Notes: generated by a model not told the origin, from the sequence alone. Numbered from the stretch's first letter, positions 28,554 to 56,892 are shown. The stretch: 64,000 nucleotides of DNA from Candidatus Bathyarchaeota archaeon (GCA_963768425.1 CAVYHV010000015.1:1-64000); one strand, 5' to 3'. Translations and numbers: made by a program.

Positions 28554-28627
28554 GCCGAGGTAGCTCAGCCTGGGAGAGCGCTCGGCTGAAGACCGAGTCG
28601 TCGCAGGTTCAAACCCTGCCCTCGGCA
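28554..28627 (+). tRNA. tRNA-Phe (GAA); anchor of the downstream array
   Basis: GCCGAGG/CCTCGGC acceptor; CTCGG-CTGAAGA-CCGAG anticodon arm; GCAGG-TTCAAAC-CCTGC T arm. Confidence 0.97.
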
Positions 28628-28748
28628 CATTTTTGCTTATTTTCTGCTTGTTTCTTTCCAATTTCTTGGTTCTTCGCAAAGAAAGGGAAAAATACATTCG
28701 CTTTGGCTGTTCAAACCTCCAGGACCATAATGTGGTCTGAACTCTGCG

Positions 28749-30384
28749 GAGACTGTGTGAAAAGTCTCTTTCTCTGCTGGCTATTTACCGTTAACCTTAA
28801 ATCTAGACTAGCTTTAGAGCAACAGAAAGAGCTGAAAAGCCATGAGCGAACACGTAACAGGCCACCACAGAAATCAGTCAGTTCTCTTCCCAAACACCAT
28901 CGACGATTACGTCGACAAGGAAAACCCAGTACGATTCATTGACGCTTTTATAGATAGCCTCAACTTAGAGAAGCTCGGATTCAAGCATTCAGTACTCGCA
29001 GACACAGGAAGACCATCTTATAATCCCTCAGACCTTCTCAAACTCTACGTTTACGGCTACCTCAACCAGGTGAGATCAAGCCGAAAATTGGAGAAAGAAT
29101 GCCACCGCAACGTTGAGGTCATGTGGCTGATGAAAAAGCTAGCTCCGGACTTCAAAACCATCGCTGACTTCAGAAAAGACAACGTGGACTGCATCAAAGG
29201 CGTATTCAAAGAATTCGTTTACCTCTGCAGGAGCCTGGATCTTTACGGTGCTCAACTGGTAGCGATTGATGGCACCAAATTCAAAGCGGTAAACTCCAAG
29301 AGCAACAACCTCAACGAGAAAACAGTCGCTTTGAGGCTCAAACAAACAGAAGAAAAGATAGCAGAGTACCTCAAAGAAATGGACCAAAACGATACGGCTG
29401 ATTCAGCTGAAGATGAAAGCGTCAATGCCGATGAGCTCAAGGAGAAAATATGCAAGCTTGAAGAGGAAAAGCAACGATACGAGCAGATTCAAGACCAAAT
29501 GAAGGCAACAGGCCAGAAGGAGGTTTCACTTGTGGATCCAGATAGCCGTTTGATGCGGGTAGACAGTCAAAGGCTTGAAGTCTGCTACAACATTCAGACA
29601 TCTGTGGATGCGAAGCAGCATTTAATCGTGGATTACGATGTCATCAATAATTCGACTGATCATCACCAGCTAGCGACCGATGCTAAGGCTGCAAAACAGA
29701 TGCTTGGCGTTGATCAGCTGGAAGTTTTGAGTGACAAAGGATTCTATGTTGCAAATGACCTCGTTGAATGTGAGGAAGCTGGGATAACGGTGTTTATGCC
29801 GATTCCAGCTTTCAATCCTACTAAGAATGTAGGGGTGCCGGAGCCCGAGTTTTGCTCTGACAAGTTTGTCTATATGTTGAGCGAGATGCTTATGTTTGTC
29901 CTGGCGGGAGTGAGTTGGAGCTTTTGAGGCGTAGTTATCGAGGAAAAGAGCAATGTTGGGGTGGTCTTTATGGGACGAAATTCTGTCTGTCTTGTTCTTT
30001 CAGGAGTAGGTGCACTAGAAACAAGCGTGGCAGACGCATGTTCAGGCGGAGTATCAAGATGCTGTGGATAGGTTAAGGGCGAGAGTTAGCAGTTCAGATG
30101 GAAGAGCGAAGTTCGTTTGAGGCGTGAAATAGCGGAGCATCCGTTTGGAACTATTAAGCGAGCGTTCAATCAGGGTTATTTGCTTTTGAAAGGGTTACGG
30201 AAGGTTAAGGGAGAAGTCGGATTTACTATGCTGGCTTATAACATGAGAAGGGCGATCAATATTCTTGGAGTTGGCACGTTAATGGCTTTGATTAAGGCGT
30301 AAAAAAGATAGTAAAGAACAAACGCATCTAAGAGCTTGGGTGGGCAAATAATGAGGCTTTAGCTATGAGTTTTGACACAGTCTG
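28749..30384 (+). mobile_element. IS1182-family insertion sequence (~1.64 kb)
   Basis: TIRs GAGACTGTGTGAAAAGTC / GAGTTTTGACACAGTCTG; TSD TGCG (28745-48, 30385-88); empty homologous site GAACTCTGCGGGGTTC at 52601. Confidence 0.92.
28842..30302 (+). CDS. IS1182-family DDE transposase, frameshifted
   Basis: GRPSYNP, SSRKLE, PDFKTIADFR, AIDGTK, DPDSR, SDKGF, EHPFGTIK, AYNMRR. Confidence 0.93.
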
Positions 30385-30487
30385 TGCGGGGTTCAAAACC
30401 CATAGAGACCTGAACCGTTATGGCACGAAAACTTTTGGATTCGACCCTAGCGCGAAGAGGCTTAGGAAAAAGCCTGCCCATTTTGCC

Positions 30488-31042
30488 TCAGAGTCCTAAC
30501 TCAATCAATTTGAGCAAACTGCCGATTTGTATAGCGTCACTTCCGGTCACCAATTGCGAAAACGTCGGTTTCGCATTCAAACCAATAGTGACCACCTTGC
30601 CACCTCCATAAGAGATAGTAACGGTTAATCCTTTGTCCCTCAATTCCTCAGCAACTTTTCTTGCTTGGCTTAAGCTGCTCCACAATGATGCTCTGCCATT
30701 CCCCAACCCGCTTAGCACCTTCTTGACGAAGTGTTTGTCGATTAAATCAAGGCTGAATTCTTTGTTTTCCGCCTTAAGTTGCAGAGTTTCCCGTCCATTT
30801 ATCGTGACTGCTAGTTCGCCTTTCCTAAAAACGTGTCCCAGCAAATTCGGCAACTTCAGGTCCGAGCCAGGTTTTTTCTCTTTGACGATAGCGAGATCGA
30901 GGACAACGAAGCCATCGAGCTTGGTTTTCAATGTGCCCGCTTCAAGGGTTAGGTCGTGAAAGGTCACCTTAAAGTCGGATTCTTTTCCTGCAAGTTTGTC
31001 CATGAATTTCATGAATGTGGTGCTGAAATTTTCTGTTGCCAC
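30488..31042 (-). CDS. Hypothetical protein
   Basis: 184 aa ORF, no recognised motif. Confidence 0.65.
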   Translation of the reverse strand: MATENFSTTFMKFMDKLAGKESDFKVTFHDLTLEAGTLKTKLDGFVVLDLAIVKEKKPGSDLKLPNLLGHVFRKGELAVTINGRETLQLKAENKEFSLDLIDKHFVKKVLSGLGNGRASLWSSLSQARKVAEELRDKGLTVTISYGGGKVVTIGLNAKPTFSQLVTGSDAIQIGSLLKLIELGL

Positions 31043-31581
31043 AGCCGAACACTATCTAAGCAAGATGTTAAAGTAACAATAAATTAAATTTATGAATCGT
31101 CCATTCATGAAAATCATGGCATGGGTAAGATACAGATTGTTCCAGCAATGCGTTTGTTATAGCAATCAATGAGATTAATGGTTTAGCTATGTCGTTTTCA
31201 GAGATATATTTCAGTCTATAGCAACAAAGTCAAAAGACAATACGCTGCAGTTCAATTTCTTCGGAGATATTTCAGATTTTTCTTCTATTAATTAAGCTTT
31301 ACAAGGACATTCTCAAGGCGACTTCTTCTGAAAATACTCAGCTAAATCCCGCATTCGAACCAAAACAGAAATTGCTGCCTACAACAAACACTTTGCAACA
31401 AAGGCAGCGCCTTTCTAGGCATAAATCTTATTCAAACCCACTATGTTTTATATTATTTCATCTTGATCATAAATTAAGTAACACAAAGGTTTTTTACGCC
31501 TTGTTTTTTGCGCCGTACTCGTCTTCAAGAATCAGCGCTCACTAGAAATTCTTCGATTAGAAAACAATGCGGGATGTCAAT

Positions 31582-31866
31582 TTAGAACATTCGCCCATTT
31601 CTTGTTTTGTTAACGTAATCTATCAAACTGAATTCCAAAACGCCGCCGAAGCAGTTGGCTATCAACCATGTCCAAGCTCCAAAAGTGTTGAAGGCAAGCC
31701 AAAAAATAACGGTGCCTACCAGAAATGTTATCGTGCCAACAAGATTATACTTAACGAATCGTAAAACCAAGTTACCTACCCTGTTGTGCAAAGCAAAATT
31801 GATCATCCTTTTCTTAAAGCTCAAACGGTCGCACAACACATTGCTGTCGCATATATTAACTGTCAC
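31582..31866 (-). CDS. GtrA-like small membrane protein
   Basis: RFVKYNLVGTITFLVG...AN pattern. Confidence 0.55.
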   Translation of the reverse strand: MTVNICDSNVLCDRLSFKKRMINFALHNRVGNLVLRFVKYNLVGTITFLVGTVIFWLAFNTFGAWTWLIANCFGGVLEFSLIDYVNKTRNGRMF

Positions 31867-32533
31867 GATATATTACCAAGATAGTAATATATCAAAACCT
31901 AAACATAACCTTTTCAATGAGCGATGAAAACAACTGTTGTACACCTGGTCATTAAAATATAGACAAGATAAGCATTCTGAAGGAAAAAAACCATCAAATT
32001 TAACTGAAAAGTGCAAAAGCTAGGCAGTAGTCGCGTTGTACAATAAGATGAGACTAAACCTTTCTCGGCGTCTTCGTAGTGGTGAATTACCCCCGCGAGG
32101 ATTTTGTGTTTGGATTCGTTGATGCAACGGTTGGTTCAATTGAATTATCAATTGTGGCAAAATTTTTTTTCGTTGATCTTTAGGTTTTCTTGCCTACTTT
32201 TTACAGATGTTACTACGTCCAAGAACATGGCTAAACGATCACCCATGCCCAACTCTTAAGATGAGTATCTAAACTTCCCACCGACCATCTTATCACAGCC
32301 ATCGATAGGTATAGTGTACGAGCACTAACGCTGCAGAAAAAAGTTGTGAAAAGAAATGGAAAAAATCGGCGTTATCCACGCCAAATCAACGGTCATTCAT
32401 AACGAATACTAAATAATTTTAGGCTGCAAATGAAGTGGGCTACTTTTTTTGAGTTTCGGCATAATACTGACGCTAAATACATAAGACATAAGGGCTTCTT
32501 AAATTCAACGATTCCATAGATGACTCTGGAAAA

Positions 32534-32899
32534 ATGGGGCCCAAGAACGAACATATAACTTTGTGGATATTGGATCAAGACCGCAAAGAAAATCGAGAAC
32601 GCAGAAAAGCAGAAAATGCTCAAAAAAATCAGATGGATGCTGTTGAAGGCAAAAACCATTGTTCCAAGTGCAAGAAGACTTTTGACGAACCCAAGATAGT
32701 CCTAGTTTGCCCTCATTGCTTGAGCAAAATAGAAGAAAAAGGCAAAACAGGCTGCCAATACTGGTTGGGTTTTCTGAACCAAAAAGAAAAGACCGAATCA
32801 ATCCCACAGGAATGTGTTGAATGTCCAAGAGTTTTGGAGTGCATGCTTAGCCAAGAAAAATCTGCAAGCGCAGTTTCAGAAATTCGTAAATGGTACTGA
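32534..32899 (+). CDS. Cys-rich Zn-binding hypothetical protein
   Basis: CSKC, CPHC, CQYWLGFL, ECVECPRVLEC. Confidence 0.7.
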   Translation: MGPKNEHITLWILDQDRKENRERRKAENAQKNQMDAVEGKNHCSKCKKTFDEPKIVLVCPHCLSKIEEKGKTGCQYWLGFLNQKEKTESIPQECVECPRVLECMLSQEKSASAVSEIRKWY

Positions 32900-33149
32900 G
32901 TTGCCAAGATTTGCAGATATCCGGCTCATTTACGCCTTTGCTGTTTTACCCAGATGCCACCGAAACTACGCGACCCATGAGATCTTCGTCTTGCTTTAAG
33001 TTTAGATACTTATCGATACCTTTAATCTCTAAAGACAACTCTTCTCTACCGTGCCCTAACATCTCAACAGCCGCATTGTTAACGTCAATAAAGTTTTCTT
33101 AAAGATCGATGACCCATATGGATTCATCCATGCCTTTAATCAGCTTCTT

Positions 33150-36100
33150 TTAAGTTGCCTCACTTTCTCTTAAAGCTGCCTCTTTTTTCTTGTCGACTGA
33201 AATATCTCTTGCAGTGATTAGCGAAAGTTCTTCATTATTAGTTTCAAGCAAAGAAACGGAAAATAGAACGGGAAAAATTTCCCCATTTTTTCGCCTAAAA
33301 TATGATTCTTTGTTTCTTACTTTTCCTTCTTTGTTTAACATCAAAGTAATCCTTTCTCTATCAGAAGGGTCCGCCCAAATGTTAAGCTCTAAAGCACACT
33401 TACCAATAACTTCTTGCCTGGAGTAGCCAAACATTTCCAAAAAAATATCATTACACTCAACTATTAAGGAACCTCTTAATGTAGTAATCATAAAAGCATC
33501 TAGACTGGTTGAAAATGCTGTCCTAAGCCTTTCTTCACTTTCAATTAACGCTTGTTCAGCCTTCTTGCGTTCAGTGGTGTTTCGGGCTATGCTTAGAACT
33601 GCCCGCTTTCCACCGTATGTTATGAGACTTGAGCTAATCTCCACCGGAATTTCTTGTCCATCCTTAGTAACGTGAATTGTTTCAAAAACCCGATTCCTAA
33701 CAGAAGGAATTTCACCAAGCCTTTTTCTAATTTGCTCTGGGCTCATGATCTTATCAATGCCGCTAACACCAATACGCATCAACTCTTCTTTAGAATAGCC
33801 CAATGTTTTAACCGCGGCATCATTCACATCAATAAAGTTTCCCTCAAAATCAATAATCCAGATAGTTTCAGTCATGCCGTTAACTAAATTTCTATAATTT
33901 GCCTCGCTCTCCGCTAAGGCTTCTTCAGTTTTTTTGCGTGTGGTAATGTCGTGAGCGACAACGAAAGCGCAATCAAGTTCGTTGTTTGTGTATTTCAATT
34001 TCGCATTCAAGGTTGCCCAAATGGAACGACCGTCTTTCGTTATTACTCCAAATTCAACGTTTGGGTCTATTTTTTCTCCAGTTATGCTTTTTCTAAATAT
34101 TTCTCGGAAGCGTTCTTTGCTCTCAGCGTTAAGAAGGTCAAAAGGACTCATAGAAAGCAATTCTTTTTCCGAGTAACCCGACAGAGCGCACATATAGTCG
34201 TTAACACTTTTGAACTGGAGACTCTTGCAGTCGATTTCATAGATAGCGGCTGGAGCGTATTCTGCAAGATGGCTGTATTTTTCGTCTTCTTCCCGCAGCT
34301 TCTCCTCTGCCAAAGTTTTGGACAAAGCCAAAGCCAAATGGTCAGCTATCCTTTCCCACATCTGAATAGCTTCGAGAGAAAACATGTTCTTCCGCTTACT
34401 ATTTAACTGAAGCAACCCCAATCGATTGTTACCGACATGCAACGCAAGCAACGCAACCGACTCATAGCCTTCTCCGTTGCAACGGTTGCGAGTTCGAATT
34501 TGACGGTCCGCATCAGATGTTGTAGCAAGAAGCCGCGCGGTATCGTTTGACCAAAAGCTTCCCTTTTCAGTAAAGAATTTTTTTGAAGGGTCGAATCTTC
34601 CGCACAAAATGTTTTCACACATGCATTCGATAACTGGGTCACCTTTCAAGTCTCGAATTAAATTGCCAGCAGCGTCCCTAGCGACAAAGTTTGTCCTCTA
34701 AGTAAGACGTGTTCAGGAGGAAAGCCTCTAGTTTCATAATAAGGATAATCATCTCCGTCTTTGAGCCTAATTCCTACCCCCTCGCAACCTGATTGTTTTT
34801 GGAAGAACTCAAGGGAAGCAGTAATCAAATCCCTGGTACCAAAGTTGCATTAGTGATTTTCAGAAACTGGATCATTATCTCGCGTTCAGTTTCAGCTTTT
34901 TTGCGTTCAGTTATATCGATGATTGATCCTTCCAGTATTCCCTCTTCAGGATAAAGCTTCAAAGCCGTAAGACAGAGTCTAGCTTCGCTTTGCTTGTTTA
35001 GCATTTTGCATTCGAAATCTTCGACAAAGCCATTGGCTTTTAGTCGGTTAACCATGTCTATTCTTTCAACTGGGTTAGCCCAAAGAGTAAGCGATGATTT
35101 ACCTATTATTTCGTTCCGCCTGCGGCCAAAAATGCGGAGAAACTTTTCGTTGCAGTCAAGAATTTCAGATCCATCTAACTTGGTCCTAAACATTCCTGCT
35201 TCGGAGTTTTCGAAAATACTCCTATACTTTACTTCACTTTTCCTCAGTCCTTCCTCAGCTTTCTTGCGTTCAGTAATGTCATTCGCGTAAATGTTTACGT
35301 AGCCTTCGACAATGACAGGTGCAAATAACATCGAAAATACTTTTGCGCCATAGATCTGTTCACGCTCAATTTTAATGTTGGATTTTAGACAGTCAGCAAC
35401 AAGTTGATTTATGTCGTCAGGTGCACGTTCGCCAACTTTGATATTCCACTCGTTCAACAATAAAAGTGCAGCTGCATTTCCATAAAGAATTGTGCCTTCT
35501 CCTTTAATACGAAGCACGGGCAAAGGATTCTCAGAAGGAAACTTTGATAAACTTTTGATTTTGTCTTCTTGTCGCTTAAGTTCAGTTATATCATCAAAGA
35601 TTGAAACGAAATACCCGTTTTCTGGGCTATAGGTAAGTATGGAAAAACATCTTTCTGAACCTTGAAAGCAATATTCGAACCTTGCTGATTTACCATGGGA
35701 GATTATTGGCCAATATGTTGCAAGTAAATCTGTAAGATTCTTCGTGATTCCGCCAGGGAAAACATTTGTGCCTCGTTCTCCTAAGACGTTTTTCTCTATT
35801 CCAGTGATTCTTTTAAATGCAAGGTTTGTTTCCAATATAATAAAATCGATTGGTTTTCTATCTAATCCAAAAATTATTTTGTTGTAAGAAAAACCGCTAT
35901 TTAGGTTAGCAAATAAGTAATCAAATTGTCGTCGATCCCGTCTAAACGCCTTATTTTGGGGAATACTCGCCAAGAACCACGCTGCATTAAAATAGCTTTG
36001 AGCTAATTCTACCAAGCAAGGATTATTTGAAAAAACCGCATCACTCTTGCTTTCCACAAGTTTCATTGAGGTCGTGAGAAGAATTTCTTTGTCATCGTAT

Positions 36101-36741
36101 AGTCTAAGCCAAACTTCAAGTGGGGTAATAGCGTATCGGTGTTCAAAATTGGGGAATCTTTCTAATGTTTGGAGTACCCTCGAATGATTTGGTCCATGAA
36201 ATTCTTCTGTGATAATTCGTATGGTTACCTTTCGTTTCAAAGCGCTTTGGATGCTAAAGTTGTTAATGGCGATCCATCTGAGCAATCTTTCCAAAGAAAC
36301 CATAATACAAATTTTGTCTTTGGCGTTTTCAAGATGTTTTTGTAGCTCAAGTTCAAGTGCGTCTCCTCGGATTAAAACGAGTTGATTGCTTTCGGAGTCA
36401 GATTTTGTATTTTCCTTCTCTTTCAGTTTCTCAATTATTTTGTTTGCTTTTTTGTCCAGATCTATGCTTTCTTTGGTTCTTCTCAGCATCAAAATGCCAA
36501 CGGCGTCATTTATGGACAGAGGCTTATACTTGGTTGGAACAGTAACTATTTTTTCAACTAGTCCAGCTTCTAGTAAGTCAATAATTGCTCTATAAGTGTC
36601 GGGGCGGGCTACTTTTGAAACATTAGCGATTTCGCTAATAGATCCCAAGCCTATCCGAAGGAGACCAAGATACGACTTTGCTTGTGTACCACTAAGACCG
36701 AGATCAACTAATGTTTTGATGTTTTCATCAAGGGCACTCAA
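33150..36741 (-). CDS. TrmB-type HTH regulator fused to PAS and GAF-like domains, frameshifted, with decayed 3' end
   Basis: LGLSGTQAKSYLGLL...EIANVSKVARPDTY HTH; repeated PAS ends (DITERKKAE); GAF-like GYESVALLAL; further PAS remnant down to ~32960. Confidence 0.8.
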
Positions 36742-36940
36742 GATGCATTGCCTTCTACTCTTTGCAAATTGAGCAGTATTGTTCTGTTCTAGCGTATGTA
36801 GTCTTTAAGCTTTGGCGAATTCCACCCGATTTCGCTTAATTCAATTCAAAACTTTCAGAACAATATCCTGTTGGATGACCTTCCACCAACAACGGCTTAT
36901 TACCTAAACAGTCTCTATAGACTACGGGGATGATTGTATT

Positions 36941-37441
36941 ATGGCTCTAGACGATTTGGATAGAAAAATAATACAATATCTAAGCTCCGGAACAAACTCC
37001 TATCAAGAACTTGCCCGAACATGCAACGTTACAAGGAATACCATTTACCGGAGAGTTGCTGCCCTTGAAAAAGAAGGAATAATTAAGAATACCCTTCACT
37101 GCATCGTAAACTTGGAACAAATGGACCTCGTTCCTGTAACGATTGGAGTAAGAATTCATCAAAGTGACCAAGATAGAGCGATCAATCTGCTGACAACAAA
37201 CAGGAACGTGAGATTTCTGTGGCGAACCTATGGAGAGCACAACCTGATGCTCGTTGCTTTTTGTCCCAAAGGCAAAGAAGGCGAAATAATCCAAGATATC
37301 AAAGCTGCCCTTGAAGAACTAAACTCAGAACACATATGTGTATCTGTTGGTTACGTGTGGGAAAAGATGAGCTATTCGCCGTTTGATGACCAAACGGAAT
37401 TTGAAACGAAAATAGCGCAGATAATAGAAAATAGATATTGA
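36941..37441 (+). CDS. Lrp/AsnC family regulator
   Basis: LDDLDRKII...SYQELARTCNVTRNTIYRRV..LEKEGII; TYGEHNL. Confidence 0.9.
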   Translation: MALDDLDRKIIQYLSSGTNSYQELARTCNVTRNTIYRRVAALEKEGIIKNTLHCIVNLEQMDLVPVTIGVRIHQSDQDRAINLLTTNRNVRFLWRTYGEHNLMLVAFCPKGKEGEIIQDIKAALEELNSEHICVSVGYVWEKMSYSPFDDQTEFETKIAQIIENRY

Positions 37442-37536
37442 TATTTACCAAAAACAGTAATCAGGCGTAACTATGTTTGTTTGATTCGAGAATGAAAGGA
37501 ACAAATCTGTTTATTTGCTGAAATCGTAAGAGAAAC

Positions 37537-38030
37537 TCAGATTGCTGTTGACGAGCAACTAACCTTTCTGTTCTCGGATTGAAGCAGGCTTTGTTTTAGA
37601 TCCAGCAGGACAAAGCTTCGCAGAGCACTTATCGCTGCAAACTTGGCTATAACGTCTAGAAACAAGTCTGGAAATGTCTCTAGCCACTTCCGGTAAGATA
37701 CCCTGATGGAAACATCAGTGGTGCCTAATTGATTTGCAAGCTCATTTTGCTTCTTAATAGCATCATATCGGTAACTTAGAAGATAGAATAAGCCTCCAAC
37801 AATGGACTTGGAGCTTTTACCGCTAAAAAATACAAATTTTCTGTGCATAAGTCTGATTAAGGATTTGCATAGTCTCGGAGGTTACTGTGTCAGCAATTGA
37901 TTTATCATACCAGACAGCATGTGCCGCAAAAGAGATTTCATCCAGAGGTATACGTCTTAGCAAACTCAATCTTTTCACTTCGTCTGTTAATCAAGATAAG
38001 TCAGCTCCTGACAGGGTTATCATTACCGCC
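37537..38030 (-). CDS. TFB-like cyclin-fold protein, frameshifted, start uncertain
   Basis: SGKSSKSIVGGLFYLLS...KQNELANQLGTTDVSIRVSYRKW resembles the TFB C-terminal cyclin repeat/HTH. Confidence 0.55.
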
Positions 38031-38189
38031 CTACGCAAAAGAAACGTTTTTGTCATTTTTTTTGCACAAATTTATCTATTCAATGGAAATAGTGCATTAT
38101 GTCGAGAAGAACTGACTATTAAGATTGCTTTGCCATGAGTTCATAAAGGCTATTAACAGTTCACTCGTTTTCAGAATAAAGGTAACAAA

Positions 38190-40823: not shown

Positions 40824-40845
40824 CAAGTTAAGGTAGTGTTTAACT

Positions 40846-44014: not shown

Positions 44015-44098
44015 GCCCATTCTTTTATCGCTCCATTTTCTCATGGTTTTAAAGGACTAAAAAAAGGAAAAAAGGAATTTTGTGTTGGTTTTTGTTGT

Positions 44099-46819: not shown

Positions 46820-46998
46820 TGAATTGCTTATTTATCGATCGCCTTATATGCCTTTGTTGTATAACGCAAAATAATGGACAAAACTCTTGAAATCCCACCT
46901 TTTGACTGAATATTTCACGTTTTTAGTTAATAAAGGAGAAGCATCACCAAAAAACGTCACAATTCAGTTTATGTAGCACCTCAGGTAACAGTGTTTGC

Positions 46999-47964: not shown

Positions 47965-48277
47965 TAAATTGAAAAGGAATTGTCATTTTCTTGAATAAAA
48001 ACACTATTAATAGCAGATTATGGTTCGAATCCCTCCTCAGTGTGAACTTAATAAAAACAAGGAAAACAAATGATTTTTTTGAAAAAATTGGGGTTTGCTG
48101 AGGCTCTGGAAACTAAGGAAGAAATTTTCTTTTTTAAGGAGAAAAAGAAAATGAACATTCTTCAAGTGCAGCTATTTCGAACATGACCAGAGCCTTCTCA
48201 GCCATTTATCTTTTCATCTCTTCTTGTTTTTTGGGGACTAAAAAAAGGGAAAGGGAGTTGTGTTAAGCACTTTTAAT

Positions 48278-51200
48278 TTATGGATGTTTTCTTGTGACAA
48301 GGAGTGCTATTACTGCGATTCCCACGATTATGACGATGATGATTGCGATACCTACGTATTCGATTGTTGATTGGGTTGCAATTCCGGTAAGAGGTGTCGC
48401 TGTTGGTGCTGCTGTTGCTGCGGGAGAGCCGGCATAGACGAAAGTTTCAGCCGCCGATGAGTAGTAGCCATTAGTTCCTGCAAAAGTTGCAAATATAGTG
48501 TAGTTACCTGTTATGCTTGGAGTCCATGTTAATCTGTAGCTGCCGCTCTGATCAGTCGTGGCGTAACCTATGGGGTAGTGGTTTCCATTAGAGTCTAAAA
48601 CAGCCAATTGCACTTGAACACCTGTGAAGTTAGTTGGTTCAGCCTGATCCTGGTAGACGTAGCCCATCCATGATTGCATGCTTGCGTCAGATGCACATGG
48701 AACCCCGTGTGGAAAGTCTGCTGCCTGTTGACTTTGGGTCGTGCCAGATGATATGTCCATCACTGTGCCGGTGATCGTTACCGGTGTAGCTGTCGTCACT
48801 CCTAGGTTAGGTGCTGAAACAGTGGTAGCACTGGGGCCTCTGCCAATACTGTATATTTGGTTGACGTAGCCGTTCATGCAGGTTATGTATCCATCCGCCG
48901 TAGCCCATTGTGGAGCAGCACTGGAAGTCCACTCGCTCGGGTATTCTGAGAGTGCCCATATTTGTTGTCCTGTTGTGGCGTTAACAGCGGTTGCTTCAGC
49001 GCCTTTGTACAGCGGGTCAGGAATGGTGTGCTCATCAGTAGCCAAGTATACTACTCCGTTAGCAATGGATTGTATCTGGGTTGGGTAAACTCCGTATGGT
49101 GTGTTTAAGCCAGCATAAGTGCTGTTACCTTCACCACCGTTGCCCCAAGTATAGACTAGTTGTCCAGTTACGTCGTTGAAGCAGTAGAGTATTCCTCCGA
49201 ATCCATCGACATAGAGGTTCCCGTAAGCAACTACTCCTGGAGGGGGTTGCCCTGGGTCGTAATAGTAATTAAAGGCGGCTGCGGTTGGAGTTGTCCATAG
49301 TAGTTGGCCCGTGTTTAGACTGTATCCTTGGAATTGTATAGTTTCCAGCGAATAAAGTGTGAAGACGCCGGTTTGGAAGTCGACTGCACTCTGTAAGAGA
49401 GTGACGTTGCCTGCTGGCGGATTATACGTCTTCATCCACAGGATTGAACCGATTGCACCGACAGATGAGTTAAGGTTGACGGCGAAGTATGTGTAAGGAA
49501 GTTGCGGGTATCCTGCTTTAGTCGCGCCGAAACCAACGGGTAGAGAGCCGTTTCTGCAAAGCATTACATCGCCATATTTTACTGCGAGTATCGACACGGG
49601 GTTTGATCCAGTTGGCGGTTGCACTATTTGTCCTGTGACGGCGCTGGGTGTTGCAGGTGGCGGCGGCATGGTGTTAAGCCATGGTAGTGAAATGTTCCAG
49701 TCATAAGTTGTTAATGAGCCGGAATTGATGCTTTTTATGGGAGCAGTGGTTCCAGGTGCAGCGGCATTGGAGTTAAGAGGTATGTTTGCATTCACCGTAA
49801 TTGAGGAGCCGCGTGGAACGAATGTTGTAAGGCCAGTTTGGTAGATAACCCATTTCACCTACAGCTGGAATAGGGATCGTTGGAAGAAGGACTCCGTTGG
49901 ATGCATTTACTGGGTCTGGTGATAAACTTCCACCGCCGGTGTACGGATTAATGTCGTACTGCCAAAGTTTAGACATGTTCCATTCAGACATGTACCAATT
50001 TGGATTAGCAGCAGTGCCAATGTTGGTTATGACGTACTTTAATTCTTCACCGCTCGGACCCAAGATGTTATTGCTTACAACAGTATTCGGGAAGGCTACA
50101 ACGCTTGGGGGGGATGTAGCTATAGGTACGACGTATGAAGTGCTTGCGGGAAGATTAGTTACGTTGAACAGCGAGTCTCCTGTGTATGCATCATAAAGCT
50201 GCCACTGGCCTGTAATTGAGTTTGGTGAGACTAAGATTGGCGGGTAAACACCATGTTGGTCGGGGTCCCAGAGGCTGTAGATGTAGCCGAATGAAATTGG
50301 GGGTATGTTTGGGTTACTCCAGAGTTGTTGTCCTGTGCGGAGGTTAATTGCTACGGTGGGTCCGCTGCCGGGGCCAGTGAATGACGCTGGTTGTGTGTAG
50401 AATAGTACTCCGTCCATTATTATCGGATTGCTGAATCTTGGCTGATATGCAGATCCTTCGTAATAGGATGCTCCCTGAACAGCACCGCTGGGATTTGAGC
50501 CGCCGGCTGAAAACATGTTGCCTCCAACCACTCCTCCAAATTGAAGCGGCAAAGTCCACATAAGATGAGAAGTTAAAGGTCCTACGGCATCTGTATGATA
50601 CAGTGCTGCGTTTGCAGTGGCGCCATATCCTTCTGGCGGTCCCGAACCTGAGCCTAGCCAGTTTGACGAAAGTGGCCACCAGTTAGAGTCTGCACCGTAT
50701 ACTGGTTCTTGCCAGTAGCTTGTCGGTAGGGGTTCACTAGTTATAGCGCTGGAAATTGGTGCTGTTTGCACGGTGAGCGTTGTTGTTGCATTGCTAGGAA
50801 GATATGTATCGTTCACCATCGGTGATTGGGCGTAGCCGTTGCCATTTGCGCCGTACACTTGTCCTGGATAATAAAAGCTGAAAGTGTAGGTACCAACAGC
50901 GGTAGGAGTAAAGGATGTTTCCTGATTTGATGTTGTATCAGAGATGATTGGAAAAGTCGTTGTTGTTTTTGCCCCATCCGGTGCAGTTACGGTAAGCTGA
51001 TAGCCTAGGAATCTATAGTTGTTTGAAAGTAAGGCTGCGCTCGCTGTGTAACCGTTCGTTCCGACAGCGGCAGTTGTTCCACCGGGTGCTCCGTAAACTT
51101 CAGTAAGCCACATGTAAACGTTTATTGTTTGACCGACACCTATAGGATTAGGTTCGGCAACAATGTAGGCTTGTGTTGGAATTTGCCACACAGGTGTATG

Positions 51201-51299
51201 TGCGTTAACGCTTGGTATTATCATTAGTGAAGCTGTCATCGAAAATGTTAAAAGTACAGCAATAAGAATAGCCATTGTTTTGCTTTTCAGTTTTTTCAT
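48278..51299 (-). CDS. Large secreted PQQ-like beta-propeller surface protein, paralog 2, frameshifted near 49830
   Basis: N-terminus nearly identical to paralog 1; LPTSYWQEP; ends LVTRKHP. Confidence 0.88.
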
Positions 51300-51470
51300 T
51301 TTTTTCCCTGAATGGCTTATTTATCGATCTCCTTATATGCCTTTGGTGCCTAACGCGAAAAAATGGACAAAACTATAGAAATCCAGTCTTTTGACTGAAT
51401 ATTTCTCGTCTTTAGCTAAAAAATGGGAAGCATTATCAAAAAAACAGGATAATTCAGTTTATGTAGCACC

Positions 51471-51680
51471 ATCTCCAGCTTTATCCCACATCTCAAGCTT
51501 CTCATATTTCATTGCCGCCTCCTCATATCGCCCAGCTCTTTCAAGATTTCTGGCTTCTTCCATTATACATTCTCGTGGCGGAGGCGGAGGGACTGATAAA
51601 TCTGTTCAATCTTTTCTAAACTTTATACGGCAACGTGGACACCAAAAGACATCTGCGAAGGTATTGGTCGGATTTCGAAA
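51471..51680 (-). pseudogene. Truncated Zn-ribbon/TPR-like gene fragment
   Basis: FWCPRC...*...ARNLERAGRYEEAAMKYEKLEMWDKAG, cut off at the 51470 junction. Confidence 0.5.
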
Positions 51681-51829
51681 GACGAGCTTTTGTTAAAATC
51701 ATGGGGATATCTTGACGCCAGTTATTACCATTTAATTGAGCTGATTTTTGTGTAAATTATTCTGGTGTTCTATGGTAGAATTGAAATTTGCAAAAGACCT
51801 TTTAAGGTATATTTCGTAAGCTTGCCCAA

Positions 51830-52090
51830 ATGTTTCTTCAGGTTTTGGCTGCTGTAGTTCATAACCAATTTGAAGTCATTCACCCCTTCCAAGATGGCAA
51901 CGGGAGAGTCGGGCGACTATTGCTAAATAACATATTACTAAAACATAATCTGCCACCCTTAAACATCGAATTAAAAAATCGAGCCCAATACTTCGCCGCC
52001 CTACAAGCATACGAAAAAGAAAACAAAATACGCCCAACGTTGGAGCTCATGCTAAAAGAATACCATGCCCTCAAAAAAATCATCAAATAG
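51830..52090 (+). pseudogene. Fic-domain protein, C-terminal fragment
   Basis: HPFQDGNGRVGR catalytic motif; only 86 aa. Confidence 0.8.
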
Positions 52091-52267
52091 GTGACTACAA
52101 AAAACGGAAATGTAGTCACCCAGAATTCCTGGCGGCTGTTTGACGTGCAGAAAGTCGCTGGCCTGAATCTGGTCCGACCTACTCCCGCGTAGAAATGCTC
52201 CATTTGACTGTTTTTAAAGTATTTTGTTATTCTTGCTCCTTTAGCTCTTTGTGGTTTGAACCCGACA

Positions 52268-52397
52268 GAGGCTGTGTAAAAACTCAAATCGAGTTCAAAA
52301 AATTGCCTCAAATGTGCATTGAAATTTTTTTTAGGCCAGCATTATTTGCATGAAGCCAGCAATTTTCTGAGATCAAGAATAGTTTTTACATAGTCTG
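52268..52397. mobile_element. 130-bp IS1182-related MITE, copy 1
   Basis: TIRs GAGGCTGTGTAAAAACT / AGTTTTTACATAGTCTG; TSD GACA. Confidence 0.88.
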
Positions 52398-52453
52398 GAC
52401 ACGGGTCAAATCCCGCCCGACCCACTCCCAAGGCACACATTTAAGGTTCTAAC

Positions 52454-52491
52454 GACGGTTTAAACGACGGCTTCAAGTTAGCCCTCGGCAC
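52454..52491 (+). repeat. att-like site 2
   Basis: GACGGTTTAAACGACGGCTTCAAGTTAGCCCTCGGCAC. Confidence 0.88.
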
Positions 52492-52717
52492 ATTTTTGCT
52501 TATTTTCTGCTTGTTTCTTGGCAATTTCTTGTTTCTTCGCAAAGAAAGGAAAAAGTACATTCGCTTCGGCTGTTCAAACTCCCGGACCATAATGTGGTTT
52601 GAACTCTGCGGGGTTCAAAAACCAATCGAGACCCAAACCGCTTCAGGCTCGAATCCAATCATAAAATTCTCATCTTATTTGCCCTGATCCCTTGAGATAA
52701 ATAAACATGAAGAAACT

Positions 52718-53168
52718 TCACTTGGCTTCGTCTGAAAAGAGTTGCTTTCCTTTTTCTGTGATTTCGATGGCACCTACTTGCTTGAAAATATTAACGTTGT
52801 CAGTAACGTTCCAGTATTCTGCGAGTTTGCCATTAACTATACGATAGATGTCAACAGCCTCAGCTCTTATCTTCTTTCCAGTAGGACTTAGTCCCATAAA
52901 TTCGCCTTTTGTGGGTCCCAGTATAGGAAAGGCGAACCCACACCTTGTTCCCTTCAGCGATGATGTCTTCAATAGATTCATGCCAATCAGGAAATGCGTT
53001 AAGACCCATAATAAATAATTGTTTGAGACCTTCTCGACCGACATTCTTGGAGCGGTCGATATAATCTGGTGCCACAAAATCGTCTATTAATTTCAAATAG
53101 TCCACGTTTCGATTATTATAGGCTTCAATAAATCTGCGAACAATCGCTTTATTCTCTTCTAAAGACAA
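52718..53168 (-). CDS. SnoaL-like ester cyclase, frameshifted
   Basis: EENKAIVRRF, AFPDW, AEGNKVWVR, GTH.GEFMG, PTGK. Confidence 0.88.
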
Positions 53169-53333
53169 AAAATCACCAGTAAATTCTATTCTCTTTTTGA
53201 GATTTAAGCGTGTTGTGAAGTGCAAGTTTTAGACTTTAGGGCTTATCCACTTCTTTGCAGTCTATCAAAGACTCCAAGAGTAACCGTTTCCCAACGTCAT
53301 TTTTAGATACTTTTCTTGTCGCATTCAAATCTC

Positions 53334-54149
53334 TTAAGTAATATCAACACGTTTTGAAGACTCGGCACTATGATCAAGAAAAAGAGCTATTAAATTCAAT
53401 GTGTTGTCAGTTATCAGCTCGCGCGATAAACCACTTTTAATTCCCATTTGATTCAAAGTCGTTCGTCTTAATTCCATCTCAGAAAGCAGACCATTCATAA
53501 GCATAGTTACATATTGAACGATAATACTTTCTTTCATATCATTCTTTATTGTTTTATCTTTCTTGCCTTTTCTAACTGCTTTTGACCAAAACTCACCATT
53601 TCTCAACATCTGAATAAAGAATTCAATGAAATGGGGCTCTTCAAAATATTTCTCAAATTCAAAATCTTCTAATGGCGAGAGGTCTTCAGTCAACTTGTTC
53701 AGGGTAGACTGTCCTACTTTGTTGACGATAAGTTCAATTATGGATTCAGGCATTAAGTTCATGTTTTTAATGTGCTCAAAAGTGTCATTGGTGATCTTTA
53801 GTACTATTGGGTTGTCGATGCCATCTTTGAGTGTTTTTGCGCAAAGGAATAGAACCTGTTCTTTTCCGGATACGTCAGTTGGTAGAGTGGCAATCATGGT
53901 TTCATTGAGTTCTTTGAAGACTTTTTTTCCGACGGCAAAAAAAACATCGTTTTTGTTTTTAAAATAATTATATATTGTTGTGCGACTTACAAACGCTGCT
54001 TCGGCAATATCTTCTAGAAGGACCTCATTTATAGGTTTTTTAGAGTAAAATTTTTCCGCTACGGCGAGAATTTCTTCTTTTGTTCTCTCTTTCTTTCTGT
54101 CGCGCAATTGTTTTTTTTCTTTGGAGGCATTGTTTTGAGTTAGTTTCAT
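53334..54149 (-). CDS. TetR/AcrR family regulator
   Basis: EDIAEAAFVSRTTIYNYFKNK. Confidence 0.9.
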   Translation of the reverse strand: MKLTQNNASKEKKQLRDRKKERTKEEILAVAEKFYSKKPINEVLLEDIAEAAFVSRTTIYNYFKNKNDVFFAVGKKVFKELNETMIATLPTDVSGKEQVLFLCAKTLKDGIDNPIVLKITNDTFEHIKNMNLMPESIIELIVNKVGQSTLNKLTEDLSPLEDFEFEKYFEEPHFIEFFIQMLRNGEFWSKAVRKGKKDKTIKNDMKESIIVQYVTMLMNGLLSEMELRRTTLNQMGIKSGLSRELITDNTLNLIALFLDHSAESSKRVDIT

Positions 54150-54206
54150 GACGTGAAAACATAATTGGCATCGCTGTTTATAAATATTTTACAGCTAATA
54201 CATAAT

Positions 54207-54221
54207 TTTACACCGTGTAAA
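54207..54221. promoter_or_regulatory. Candidate TetR operator
   Basis: Palindrome TTTACAC-C-GTGTAAA between the divergent tetR and membrane-protein genes. Confidence 0.55.
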
Positions 54222-54258
54222 TATTTATATGCGACGTGTACTATAGTAATTAAATGTC

Positions 54259-54969
54259 GTGTTTTGTATGTCAACTGAAGAAGAAAATTTTTTGAGCAAA
54301 GAAAAGAGCGTTTTGCGATGGAGCGGTCTGGCTGGTATTCTGGCTGGAGTCTTTTTTATTTGCACCATCGTCACGCTAATTAATTTTGGGAATTCGACAA
54401 CAGCCAACGTTGCGGATTTGATCACAAAGTTTCCAGATCACAGAATGGACCTTGCGGTGGGAAATGTCTTCTACTTTTTGGTCAGCGTCTCGTTAGTTGG
54501 TCTCGCGCTTGGCCTGTATCAGGCTCTTCGAAGGGCGAGCATTGGACTCCCGCTCTTCGGGACTGTTCTATTCGTTCTAGGTCTAGGAGTAACCTTTATT
54601 GAAGATACTACGCAGATCGCTTTCGACCCGATCTCCAAACTCTATAATGCTGCCGCAGCGACCTCCACGGACAAAGCTACACTCACCCTCATATGGCAGG
54701 CAACACAGGGTATGTTCAATCAGTTTGACGTCGGAGCAACACTCCTCCTCTCCACAGGGTTAATCGTTCTTGGAGCAGCCATGATCAGGGTACCAGCTTT
54801 TGGCAAAATCTTCGGCGGGCTAAGTATTGCAATCGGAGCGGCTCAGATCGTAGGGATATCTTTCCTTTCAACCAATTCTGCCGCATACGCACCATTCGCC
54901 CTCCTAGCCTTCTTAATCTTCCCAGTCGTCTTCGGATGGAAACTCTACAGTCTATCAAGGAAGCCATAA
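54259..54969 (+). CDS. Multi-TM membrane protein (DUF4386-like)
   Basis: About 6 TM segments; RWSGLAGILAG start. Confidence 0.7.
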   Translation: MFCMSTEEENFLSKEKSVLRWSGLAGILAGVFFICTIVTLINFGNSTTANVADLITKFPDHRMDLAVGNVFYFLVSVSLVGLALGLYQALRRASIGLPLFGTVLFVLGLGVTFIEDTTQIAFDPISKLYNAAAATSTDKATLTLIWQATQGMFNQFDVGATLLLSTGLIVLGAAMIRVPAFGKIFGGLSIAIGAAQIVGISFLSTNSAAYAPFALLAFLIFPVVFGWKLYSLSRKP

Positions 54970-55151
54970 GAAATCTTGGAATTGTTCTTGGGGGACTCCT
55001 TTTACGGAGTCTTTCAACACAATAAACTGTGTTGGAATCCCAACGGGCCGCCATAAGAATTTTTTAAGAAGAATTGAGGATTCGCTTAGCGCGCGCTAAA
55101 GTGTTTTCAAACGCGCTTGACGCTTTTAGGCGATTGGACCTGACCCCATTT

Positions 55152-55281
55152 GAGACTGTGTAAAAACTATTTTTAATTTCAGAAAATTGCTGGTTTTATC
55201 TAAATAATGTTGGTTTAAAAAAGGATTCAAAACATATTTGAAGCAATTTTTTGGGCTTGATTTGAGTTTTTACACAGCCTG
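55152..55281. mobile_element. 130-bp IS1182-related MITE, copy 2 (inverted relative to copy 1)
   Basis: TIRs GAGACTGTGTAAAAACT / AGTTTTTACACAGCCTG; TSD ATTT; internal sequence aligns with the reverse complement of copy 1. Confidence 0.88.
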
Positions 55282-55326
55282 ATTTGGGGTCAAATCCCAC
55301 CGGACTCGCACCTTTAAAGTTCTAGC

Positions 55327-55364
55327 GACGGTTTAAACGACGGCTTCAAGCTTGCCCTCGGCAC
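55327..55364 (+). repeat. att-like site 3
   Basis: GACGGTTTAAACGACGGCTTCAAGCTTGCCCTCGGCAC. Confidence 0.88.
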
Positions 55365-55524
55365 TTTTGAGTTCAATAGAAGCTTGTTTTAACAATAAAG
55401 TCACACTTTGGAATAATTTGCCTACAACTCAGGGATTCGTGAAATATTGAAAATGAGATGAATAGAGTCAAATTGTAGAAATCTTTTTACTTCTTGTTGC
55501 TCATAAGGACATAGGCGACTAAAA

Positions 55525-55734
55525 GTGACCCTAACAATCAATAGCGATGAACTGAAAACTGTCCTTGATAAACTAGATACGGTGAAACTTGAACTTTTAC
55601 GATTGAGAGCAATGTTGTTGCCAGAAGAGGAGGCTACGGAACAAGAAAAGAAAGAGATCAAAAAAGCGAAACAAGAACTATCAAAAGGGTCAAGGATAAA
55701 CCTTAAAGAGTTTATTGATGAACTGGGCTGCTGA
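55525..55734 (+). CDS. Putative antitoxin
   Basis: 69 aa acidic protein directly upstream of a RelE-type toxin. Confidence 0.7.
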   Translation: MTLTINSDELKTVLDKLDTVKLELLRLRAMLLPEEEATEQEKKEIKKAKQELSKGSRINLKEFIDELGC

Positions 55735-55741
55735 CTTCTAA

Positions 55742-56003
55742 TTGTTTGACATCACTGTTGCTCAACGAGCCCAGAAGAGTCCAAGAAGCTGCCTGAACAC
55801 CTCAAACGCAGAATTGTCGAACTTCTTTTAATCTTACGGGAAAACCCAGTCCCAGCAGAATACTATGATGTAAAGAAACTGAAGGGACTGGCAGACACAT
55901 ATAGAATTAGAATCGGTGATTTCAGAATTATCTATGAAATTTCTTGGGACAAAGCGGCGGTGAATATATTATATATTGGGTCCGGGAAAACGCGTATTCT
56001 TGA
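55742..56003 (+). CDS. RelE/ParE-family toxin, frameshifted (not in ORF track)
   Basis: KKLPEHLKRRI...ENPVP...VKKLKG..DTYRIRIGDFRIIYEI...RENAYS*. Confidence 0.85.
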
Positions 56004-56006
56004 ATC

Positions 56007-56047
56007 GACGGTTTAAACGACGACATGAAGCTAGTCCCTCGGCACCA
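56007..56047 (+). repeat. att-like site 4
   Basis: GACGGTTTAAACGACGACATGAAGCTAGTCCCTCGGCACCA. Confidence 0.85.
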
Positions 56048-56265
56048 AATATCCTTAATTTAAGGTTATTTTGCAATATTGGGCATAAATTACAACATTA
56101 TATGCGCTCTGCAAGCAGGGTAATGAGATATGAAAGAGGGAACGTTTCTACTCATAGACTTTACCGGAAAAGCAAAATATTGATTGAAGCAAACAATACT
56201 GCTTCACGATTGGAGGTAACAGATTGATTTCGGGGACAAGGGGTCTCCAGATATTTTTATAAATG

Positions 56266-56535
56266 TTAGAGCATTTTTGAAAAGTCATCGTACACTTTGC
56301 TTCTATGGCCGACAAAAAGAATGACTACTTGGTTTTTGTTTTGGTCTATCTCGTAGATAACTCTGTAGTCGCCTACTCGTAGACTCCAGAAATCTGATTG
56401 TTTTAGGGGTTTTCCTGTTTTGTCGGGGTTTTCACGCAGTTGCTTTGCGCTCTCGACTATTCTTGTTCGGACGTGTTTTTCAGTTTTTTGGAGTTCTTTT
56501 GCTGCTTTAGGGTGCAGAAGTACTTTGAAAGTCAC
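56266..56535 (-). CDS. RelE/ParE-family toxin
   Basis: AAKELQK...ENPD.TGKPLK...SLRVGDYRVIYEI...VGHRSKVY. Confidence 0.9.
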   Translation of the reverse strand: MTFKVLLHPKAAKELQKTEKHVRTRIVESAKQLRENPDKTGKPLKQSDFWSLRVGDYRVIYEIDQNKNQVVILFVGHRSKVYDDFSKML

Positions 56536-56753
56536 TCTAGTTCCTCTATAGGAATGAGGGATTCTGGGCGTTGTTTTGCTTCTTCGCTACGTTCCATGAG
56601 TGTGTTGAAGAAGTTGCATGTTTTTTCGCGTTCTTGATAGTAGGTGATGATTGATTTTATGGCGTCGCTTCGGTTTTTGAAGCGGCCTTCTGCTACCCAT
56701 CCATCTATTTCCTCGAGGGTTTTTTGTGGAAGACGTAGTTGTACTTGAGCCAA
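56532..56753 (-). CDS. Ribbon-helix-helix (CopG/Arc) antitoxin
   Basis: VQLRLP...IDGWVAEGRFKNRSDAIK; overlaps the toxin start. Confidence 0.88.
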   Translation of the reverse strand: MAQVQLRLPQKTLEEIDGWVAEGRFKNRSDAIKSIITYYQEREKTCNFFNTLMERSEEAKQRPESLIPIEELE

Positions 56754-56852
56754 ATATGTCGCCGTAAACAGTACTGTTTACAACTCACTTAAACGTTTCC
56801 TAAACAACCATCCGAGTCCCGACCCACTCTGTCTTGCGGATAATGGTGCAAC

Positions 56853-56892
56853 GAAGGTTTAAACGACGACATGAAGCTAGCCCTCTGCACCA
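56853..56892 (+). repeat. att-like site 5 (most degenerate)
   Basis: GAAGGTTTAAACGACGACATGAAGCTAGCCCTCTGCACCA. Confidence 0.82.

Follow-up and report, generated by a model that had tools for sequence, protein, structure and literature searches.

The tRNA-Phe gene of a Candidatus Bathyarchaeota archaeon (GCA_963768425.1) heads a genomic island that was probably built by repeated site-specific insertion of small cassettes that lack an integrase gene and would depend on a tyrosine integrase acting in trans. Few uncultured archaea in sediments, peat and soil are as abundant as the Bathyarchaeia, and to our knowledge almost nothing is known of how accessory genes move in them. The island lies in the window analysed here, a stretch of 64,000 nt from a 127.6-kb contig (C15) of this genome (G000). 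Other G numbers denote congener genomes, C numbers contigs, and L numbers further loci that carry the P arm described below. The insertion mechanism is well supported in outline, and the enzyme proposed for it is a candidate only.

The array is anchored at tRNA-Phe(GAA) (28554-28628, plus strand; ARAGORN, and Rfam RF00005 at 65.6 bits), which is divergent from a tRNA-Val(CAC) at 28111-28187 (ARAGORN, Rfam). The last 11 nt of this tRNA-Phe (28618-28628), GCCCTCGGCAC, form the core common to all junctions. An earlier note, made from the sequence alone, had claimed that this tRNA end recurs five times downstream with an arm before each copy, exact at the three proximal sites and mutated at the two distal ones, and both observations hold. 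Exact copies of GCCCTCGGCAC lie at 28618, 43581, 52481 and 55354, and copies with one mismatch at 56035 (TCCCTCGGCAC) and 56880 (GCCCTCTGCAC), which amounts to 6 matches in the window against 0.40 expected, a number reached in 0 of 100 shuffles. Directly before each of the five downstream cores, in the same orientation throughout, stands the P arm GACGGTTTAAACGACG (at 43554, 52454, 55327, 56007 and 56853), with about 11 further conserved bases between GACGGTTTAAACGACG and the core. Searched with up to three mismatches, the P arm pattern gave 6 matches where 0.42 were expected; the one additional to these five lies at 42258, has 3 mismatches and is probably a chance occurrence.

Each P arm is 27 bp long and holds two direct ACGACGG repeats 12 bp apart, followed by a diverged T-loop-like CTTCAAGCTA that resembles the T-loop region of tRNA-Phe, GTTCAAACCCT, with a one-base gap; the repeats are direct, not inverted. 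The five P arm and core junctions downstream of tRNA-Phe (s1 to s5, all on the plus strand) continue into P' arms of more than one type. An arm of about 130-160 bp, P'-2, follows the tRNA-Phe core, s1 and s2 only. The downstream arm that had been proposed as shared therefore stands for these three places and fails at s3, s4 and s5, which have other arm types. The first P'-2 copy (28629-28790, plus strand) has a T-rich start, ATTTTTGCTTATTTTCTGCTTGTTTCTT, followed by tRNA-like relics, is homologous to the s1 and s2 copies up to 28749, and has 93% identity to the s2 copy. Junction s1 (43554-43736) comprises P arm (43554-43580), exact core (43581-43591) and P'-2 (43592-43736), and s2 (52454-52650) is composed likewise (52454-52480, 52481-52491 and 52492 to about 52650). 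At s3 (55327-55364), the P arm (55327-55353) and exact core (55354-55364) lead into a different arm beginning TTTTGAGTTCAATAGAAGCTT; this junction is bridged without any difference by a 199-nt contig (55235-55433) of run X1, one of the sequencing runs (among them X1, X6 and X7) consulted as Logan contigs. Junction s4 (56007-56235) has its P arm at 56007-56034, the core TCCCTCGGCAC at 56035-56045 and an arm of about 190 bp, P'-3 (56046 to about 56235), that opens with a hairpin and a T-run (AACCTTAATTTAAGGTTATTTT). At s5 (56853-56890), both the P arm (56853-56879) and the core GCCCTCTGCAC (56880-56890) have one mismatch.

The island extends further than had been thought. The earlier note ended the array at 56892 and so missed its last 4 kb: a sixth, decayed core with 2 mismatches, GTCTTCGGCAC, lies at 60905-60915. 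This terminal attachment site (attR, 60876-60915, plus strand) reads gatcaccaatcgcttttagtccaaacctt then GTCTTCGGCAC and has another arm type, a T-loop-like arm called type B here (60876-60904). We place the island at 28629-60915, about 32.3 kb, because the decayed core and type-B arm directly precede the homologue of the congener flank. The G+C content of the island (0.40-0.46) is the same as that of its surroundings, and a promoter scan was not above shuffles. Core mismatches grow with distance from the tRNA (0, 0, 0, 1, 1 and 2), a trend that fits insertion next to the tRNA.

That the segments are discrete insertions follows from empty sites in congeners. We located tRNA-Phe in 55 of the 60 other genomes of the same genus and compared 20 of these loci. 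In four (G044, G051, G021 and G053), the homologue of the conserved chromosomal flank, about 60961-64000 in the window, lies within 8-250 bp of the tRNA. Together with the outward decay of the core, these empty sites support the proposal that cassettes were inserted sequentially at the tRNA with the newest nearest to it.

Individual cassettes also recur in other species and in other positions. Window 55320-56047 (arm, core, cassette D, arm, core) has 90.4% identity in G002, where it is second after tRNA-Phe, the D homologue sitting behind a 0.2-kb mini-cassette. Cassette E, encoding a ribbon-helix-helix (RHH) protein and ParE, has 94.3% identity over window 56006-56818 in G045, as the last unit of a 14.7-kb array, and 92.3% over window 56131-56892 in G022. 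The chromosomal flank gene at 61021-61576 has only 70.5-73.5% identity in the same three genomes, and the homology breaks coincide with junctions. The P'-3 arm is conserved before different cargo in the window, in two cassettes of G045, in G012 and in G070. P'-2 has a match in 11 of the 60 congeners, and there the element preceding each examined copy is tRNA-Leu(TAG/CAG) or a P arm and Leu core; in G000 it stands behind tRNA-Phe, tRNA-Leu(TAG) and tRNA-Leu(CAA). Cassettes of only 0.24-0.85 kb with complete arms exist. On sequence grounds, these comparisons indicate that the same cassettes have moved between species, and the idea of non-autonomous cassettes with a common attachment (att) architecture is supported by the order of arm, core and arm, the lack of an integrase and the recurrence at 90-94% identity.

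A search for the motif in related metagenome-assembled genomes (MAGs) had been suggested. With one mismatch allowed, 9 of 24 other genomes in the genus have the P arm pattern, as against none (0 of 16) of the genomes from the order's other genera. The exact 22-base-equivalent pattern was found in 46 stretches when 185,579 species were searched with one genome apiece, all of these stretches belonging to Bathyarchaeia/Bathyarchaeota MAGs, and also in 82 metagenome contigs; these collections overlap, so the counts are not independent. Viral contigs gave 0 matches. By these searches the P arm appears confined to one Bathyarchaeia genus. Within G000, further copies lie on C24 behind an intron-bearing tRNA-Leu(CAA), twice on C13, and partially on C28 and C30.

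The core changes with the target tRNA, which is tRNA-Phe or a tRNA-Leu isoacceptor. The 84 P sites of 80 metagenome loci divide into 30 with the Phe core, 16 with CCCCCTGCAC (Leu TAG/CAG), 14 with CCCGCAGCAC (Leu CAA), 8 with CCCGCTGCAC, 7 with CCCTCAGCAC and 9 with various others. At most P sites where a tRNA is seen, the core is that of the visible anchoring tRNA. Two 120-nt intron-bearing tRNA-Leu genes of G000 that default ARAGORN missed, with anticodons CAA (C24:6390-6509, minus strand) and TAA (C14:260234-260353, plus strand) as read by eye, are both integration targets.

The earlier note saw no recombinase in any segment, and this holds for the tyrosine and serine families; a DDE-type insertion sequence (IS) transposase is nevertheless present at 28842-29927. 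Neither PF00589 nor PF00239 has a match on the whole 127.6-kb contig, and no serine recombinase (PF00239) was matched in G000. Nothing better than E = 0.29, and thus no integrase remnant, was obtained by tblastn with nine query proteins, seven of them integrases, over 28001-61500. Twelve further cassettes yielded 45 listed open reading frames (ORFs), of which the ten chosen for scanning all have accessory functions and include no recombinase; they encode a PQQ propeller, Zn-dehydrogenases, a lipocalin-like protein, a helix-turn-helix (HTH) regulator, DsbA, a CheB-CheR-PAS kinase, a kumamolisin-type protease, a flavodoxin and one protein without a family hit. Integrase similarity was found in 5 of 46 named P-arm loci (three fragments, one frameshifted, one full length) and in 3 of 80 metagenome P-arm loci, within surveyed loci of at most 8-15 kb, so that a more distant integrase gene would be missed.

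In the mechanism we propose, a cassette would exist as a circle whose attachment site, attP, consists of the 27-bp P arm, a core of 10-11 bp that repeats the target tRNA's 3' end exactly, and a P' arm of 130-190 bp that opens with a T-run or with a hairpin and a T-run. Recombination in the core would place the cassette right behind the tRNA. The P' arm would then become the new trailer of the tRNA, and older cassettes would be pushed outward. The expected outcome is a series of P-core-P' junctions, one between each cassette and the next, in which age and decay increase away from the tRNA. Because the cassettes encode no recombinase, a tyrosine integrase would act on them in trans.

Part of this evidence could be accommodated by other explanations. 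The island might be a graveyard, in which each segment was an autonomous element that lost its integrase by deletion and the cassettes are inert, with no mobilisation in trans. Integrase fragments or frameshifted copies do adjoin P sites in L082, L086, L101 and G022:C28, the terminal site has the arm type of integrase elements and yet the integrase is gone, and the available part of the tycheposon account describes islands that decay likewise (bioRxiv 10.1101/2020.12.28.424599). However, in integrase-bearing elements the 3' end of the integrase lies 40-70 bp from the core, whereas P'-2 and P'-3 are non-coding over 130-190 bp and conserved before unrelated cargo at many loci, which independent deletions would not yield. 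The 32 kb contain no integrase remnant, cassettes of 0.24-0.85 kb have complete arms, and the fusion of an integrase to cassette E in G022, made by deletion of the first ~85 bp of P'-3, is secondary and not ancestral. We thus regard an origin by integrase loss as unlikely. An exchange by homologous recombination after DNA uptake, with the tRNA and the P and P' arms as anchors and no present-day site-specific recombinase, is in our view even harder to accept. The tRNA is 97-99% identical across species and the arms 77-94%, which provides 75-190 bp of homology on each side; the observed breakpoints fall in or at the arms, as this process also predicts, and one P-arm-positive genome (G012) lacks the candidate integrase. 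It would nonetheless leave unexplained the origin of the P-core-P' units, the exact switch of the core with the target tRNA under constant arms, and the identity block that ends exactly at the tRNA 3' end.

Two further readings can be given very little weight. Arm plus core could be a repeat that serves the host as terminator, small RNA, regulator site or the like, and not an attachment site, given that the unit stands between gene groups, is followed by T-runs and is conserved across the genus. Against this, Rfam at E<=1 returned only the two tRNAs over 27500-61500, single-strand folding of the five arm and core sites was no better than that of shuffles (z -1.35 to +0.55), and the terminator scan found 9 against a shuffle mean of 13.6. 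In addition, the core co-varies with the nearby tRNA and whole segments are absent from congeners, and we consider a host repeat highly improbable. Finally, a metagenome bin could have been stitched together wrongly at the junction repeats, which are about 210 bp long and 89-93% alike, and G000 is indeed a 33-contig bin with 4.75% contamination. The same architecture is nevertheless seen in independent assemblies (the G045 and G002 arrays, the 46 named loci and the 82 metagenome contigs), the X1 contig bridges s3 with 0 differences, and the repeats differ enough to be told apart, which makes an assembly artefact scarcely credible.

Insertion by a trans-acting integrase calls for an enzyme, and the genus offers one abundant family. 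Tyrosine recombinases combining PF00589 with an N-terminal Zn-ribbon-like DUF7838 are found in 52 of the 60 congeners, often in several copies, and their genes end 40-70 bp from the 3' ends of tRNA-Leu(TAA, TAG, CAG), Ala(TGC), Cys, Arg(CCT) and Ser(CGA). A clade with 44-46% identity adjoins tRNA-Phe in G059, G046 and G064, with a frameshifted copy in G022. The integrase gene is whole after integration and hence of the classical type, which in the consulted part of PMC8371274 is the type that keeps the gene intact on integration. G000 itself has an intact 436-aa member at the intron-bearing tRNA-Leu(TAA) on C14; no tRNA-end repeat marking the right end of this element was found within 70 kb at up to 2 mismatches. 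Just distal to a junction of P arm and Leu core, a family member is full-length in L124 and L189 and near-full-length in L229, where the contig end cuts it, so that cassettes lacking an integrase have entered between the tRNA and an integrase element already resident there. Integrase-bearing elements at tRNA-Phe in G059 and G046 have at their right end the same type-B arm as the outermost site of the array; since the terminal site has their arm type, an element of this family probably founded the island. As the trans-acting partner of the cassettes, this family is our best candidate but short of probable.

Several observations weigh against the model of cassettes inserted in trans or against this candidate. 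The P arm differs from the type-B arm at the right end of intact tRNA-Phe integrase elements, so there is no sign that the candidate recognises the P arm. In G012, which carries three P arms with P'-2 and P'-3, the integrase family has no match at E<=1e-20. An intact integrase at tRNA-Phe is absent from all P-arm-positive genomes compared, and G000, which is 91% complete, has no member of the tRNA-Phe clade next to a tRNA. Phe cores also occur where another tRNA heads the array, at the far end of tRNA-Leu(CAG) arrays (G002:C4 and G012:C12), and at a P site 4.9 kb from tRNA-Thr in G003, and simple insertion at the heading tRNA does not predict these three sites. Nor does the window show a recognisable junction near 57378, where one is expected. 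No excised circle, same-strain empty site or recombination product was seen in the Logan contigs, which contain at most 0.18 of the sampled words in any run and cannot show circles, excision or strain-level empty sites; parts and habitats that they leave uncovered do not count as evidence. The terminal overlap of 20-200 nt that a circular contig would have was found in 0 of 126 P-arm loci.

Two further integrases were considered as candidates. A 453-aa integrase (G000:C28:17802-19163) has an arm-like ACGGTTTAAACGA 57 bp past its stop and is no more than a weak lead. Among the 60 congeners its best match is a 119-aa fragment at 50% identity, the rest being at 22-37% apart from one 35-residue fragment at 63%, and no P arm was found near any of 29 distant relatives. 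The intergenic stretch directly before its 3' end (G000:C28:17400-17810) contains part of a P arm together with two relics, one like the 3' end of tRNA-Ala(TGC) and one like tRNA-Arg. The 119-aa fragment (G068:C1:832329-832682), the only close relative of the C-terminal part of this integrase, has one internal stop and lies about 4.5 kb from the tRNA-Phe-like match of G068. The integrase and toxin-antitoxin genes of G022 were rejected as an autonomous P-arm element, their alignment showing a fusion that deleted the start of P'-3 and the integrase being frameshifted. G000 also has a 196-aa integrase fragment (C30:143377-144246) that looks bacterial (XerD/transposon-like), is overlapped by a long antisense frame and may be bin contamination.

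Relics of tRNA ends are frequent inside the island. Within the P'-2 arm, the 3' end of tRNA-Ala(CGC) survives as a relic, accompanied by the sequence downstream of that tRNA in the chromosome, and further tRNA-3'-like relics precede the arms of s2 (52403) and s3. Seven T-loop-like relics lie in the 32-kb island, six of them in tRNA orientation, against 3.4 per 100 kb genome-wide. If neighbouring elements were excised jointly, right-end sites captured along with chromosomal flank would be left behind in this way. Elsewhere in G000, the downstream flanks (<60 nt) of tRNA-Pro(CGG) on C9, tRNA-Ala(CGC) and tRNA-Gly(GCC) on C10, and tRNA-Pro(TGG) on C8 contain fragments like the 3' ends of other tRNAs, which suggests att scars at many tRNA loci of this genome. 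In runs X6 and X7, loose contig ends join a tRNA-Leu end to the P'-2 arm; these contigs come from relatives and are weak evidence. One X1 contig joins 43732 to 52636 (side 37), which may be the P'-2 arm of another locus.

The segment sizes given in the earlier note (15.0, 8.9, 2.9, 0.7 and 0.85 kb) are right. Its description of the cargo was sound for the signalling genes, the surface proteins with Lrp, the SnoaL/TetR/membrane protein set and the RHH-RelE pair, and needs amending in that the RelE frame of the 0.7-kb segment has no start codon and SnoaL is split. Segment A (28629-43580, 15.0 kb) encodes PAS sensors, TrmB-PAS, HTH proteins (AsnC-HTH), a receiver-PAS-histidine kinase and a Rieske protein (Pfam); it may well be composite because of an internal tRNA-3'-like relic at 41387. 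Near its start lies an IS element (28825-30306, plus strand) with a DUF772 and DDE_Tnp_1 transposase (Pfam) in an ORF of 361 aa (28842-29927), which has 74% DNA identity to a G045 copy with a 487-aa ORF. It apparently interrupts the first P'-2 arm, and the distal module of that arm continues at about 30370-30440 with a relic at 30390. This IS is a passenger in the window, and copies are also found about 220-310 bp from arm sites in G045 and G002:C3; it may prefer these arrays or simply accumulate in them.

Segment B (43592-52480, 8.9 kb) encodes three PQQ_2/Ig-like surface proteins and a double-HTH Lrp/AsnC regulator, with an internal relic at 48022. Segment C (52492-55353, 2.9 kb) has a SnoaL-like gene, a TetR regulator and a DUF4386 membrane protein. 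The SnoaL-like gene (52718-53225, minus strand) consists of two overlapping frames matching profile positions 3-88 and 79-125 and is probably a frameshifted pseudogene; a 93%-identical copy in G056 has no att context there. Elsewhere in the genus, cassettes B and C were matched only by 64-73% paralogues and by single genes at 79-93%. Segment D (55365-56034, 0.67 kb, plus strand) has a 69-aa antitoxin-like ORF (55525-55734) and a ParE/RelE-like frame (55750-56016) that matches profile positions 25-86, has no ATG, GTG or TTG start and takes its stop from the TAA of the P arm. Segment E (56046-56879, 0.83 kb, minus strand) encodes a ParE-family (ParE/RelE-type) toxin (56266-56535) and its RHH antitoxin (56532-56753; Pfam). 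Segment F (56891-60904, 4.0 kb) has two 65-aa ORFs and an 889-aa PQQ_2/Ig-like surface protein (57970-60639, minus strand). In contigs of relatives from runs X6 and X7, placed at 90% likeness with 31-nt sides and thus weak evidence, a P arm and core directly precede the homologue of 57378, and segment F is probably two units whose inner junction has been lost in the window. Large secreted proteins with PQQ_2 beta-propeller and Ig-like domains are a recurrent cargo (44099-46819, 48278-49858 and 57970-60639, and also L093:864-2138), with many 64-73% paralogues across the genus.

Among known systems, the streptococcal cis-mobilisable elements (CIMEs) come close: they are att-flanked, cis-mobilisable and without recombination genes, and their accretion and mobilisation with integrative and conjugative elements (ICEs) has been proposed. 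The island seems to share with them att-bounded segments that lack an integrase, are stacked in tandem at a tRNA-type site and would owe their movement to an integrase encoded by an autonomous relative, and its internal att scars suggest co-excision of neighbours. It has att-like flanks of putative function, and no recombinase genes were seen between them. In contrast to CIMEs, the host is an archaeon, the cassettes are a family of their own with conserved non-tRNA arms unlike those of integrase-bearing elements, one arm set serves several tRNA targets, and nothing conjugative is visible. IMEX elements (integrative mobile elements exploiting Xer) have no integrase either, use the host XerCD at dif and pile up in tandem; they are alike in being non-autonomous, in borrowing a recombinase and in their tandem piling at one site, but the site here is a tRNA end and not dif. 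No terminal inverted repeats of the IS or miniature inverted-repeat transposable element (MITE) kind were seen by inspection, nor were the P and P' arms inverted copies of each other in the aligned sequences (inspected by eye; no inverted-repeat finder was run), and the repeated unit is a tRNA end.

The array had also been called integron-like. What it shares with integrons is an ordered series of small cassettes that are poor in promoters, include many toxin-antitoxin pairs and stand with the newest at the point of insertion. The comparison does not survive beyond this, as we found no attC-like site or folding, no integrase at the head of the array or elsewhere in it and no Pc promoter, while the genes lie on both strands and the target is a tRNA 3' end. 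Nor can we uphold the proposal of a distinct gene-capture system, since ordinary tyrosine-recombinase elements use the same tRNA ends in this genus, the outermost site has their arm type, and accretion is known. As far as the available part of the source describes them, the tycheposons of Prochlorococcus are tRNA-anchored islands grown by successive integrations in which new elements push older ones inward and leave partial tRNA copies between them, with degraded integrases and niche-adaptive cargo (bioRxiv 10.1101/2020.12.28.424599). The likeness, as far as that part goes, is architectural only and consists in successive insertion at a tRNA. In that description the elements have their own tyrosine recombinase, whereas most units here have none and share long conserved arms, and the hosts are archaea of peat and soil. 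Tandem arrays of archaeal tyrosine-integrase elements at tRNA sites, and 'gene capture', are known from the consulted parts of PMC6563490 and PMC8371274. Like the pNOB8-type elements in these sources, the elements at hand integrate at tRNA 3' ends with the integrase gene intact and reuse the same site as arrays; there, however, each element has its own integrase, and those parts of the two papers do not mention an integrase-free family with modular arms. The island combines direct repeats of the tRNA end with an intact tRNA and contains no integrase of its own, which is found only in related elements in G059, G046, G064 and L124. Overall, the island resembles CIME/ICE accretion and tycheposon islands. 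A literature search found no published account of these arms or of integrase-less cassettes in Bathyarchaeia; what we did not find in print is an archaeal integrase-free cassette family with conserved modular non-tRNA arms and several tRNA targets, accretion itself being known.

A bolder reading, which we offer tentatively, is that Bathyarchaeia of this genus possess a dedicated cassette-exchange system. The P arm, its two ACGACGG repeats one helical turn apart, might serve as the handle for a recombinase or an accessory protein, a small set of terminator-bearing P' arms would be interchangeable, and only the core would change to fit tRNA-Phe or any of three tRNA-Leu genes. If true, this would be an archaeal, tRNA-anchored functional counterpart of integrons, and it could be a main route by which accessory genes, such as those for PQQ-propeller surface proteins, are spread.

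At the more modest level of insertion in trans, the locus defines a unit of gene flow that can be searched for by sequence, with a genus-specific arm, a tRNA-matched core and a few arm types. It gives the large families of PQQ-propeller surface proteins, of sensors and of toxin-antitoxin pairs a mobile carrier. In this regard, numerous PQQ-domain genes have been noted in Bathy-6 genomes, with lateral transfer suggested, in the consulted part of PMC11697101. The cassettes may be one vehicle for the PQQ family expansion noted there for Bathy-6. The defined att sequences and the small number of listed integrases might in time be put to use for inserting DNA site-specifically into archaea for which genetic tools are lacking. 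In the genus studied here, the cassettes look like hitch-hiking mobile elements that spread accessory genes.

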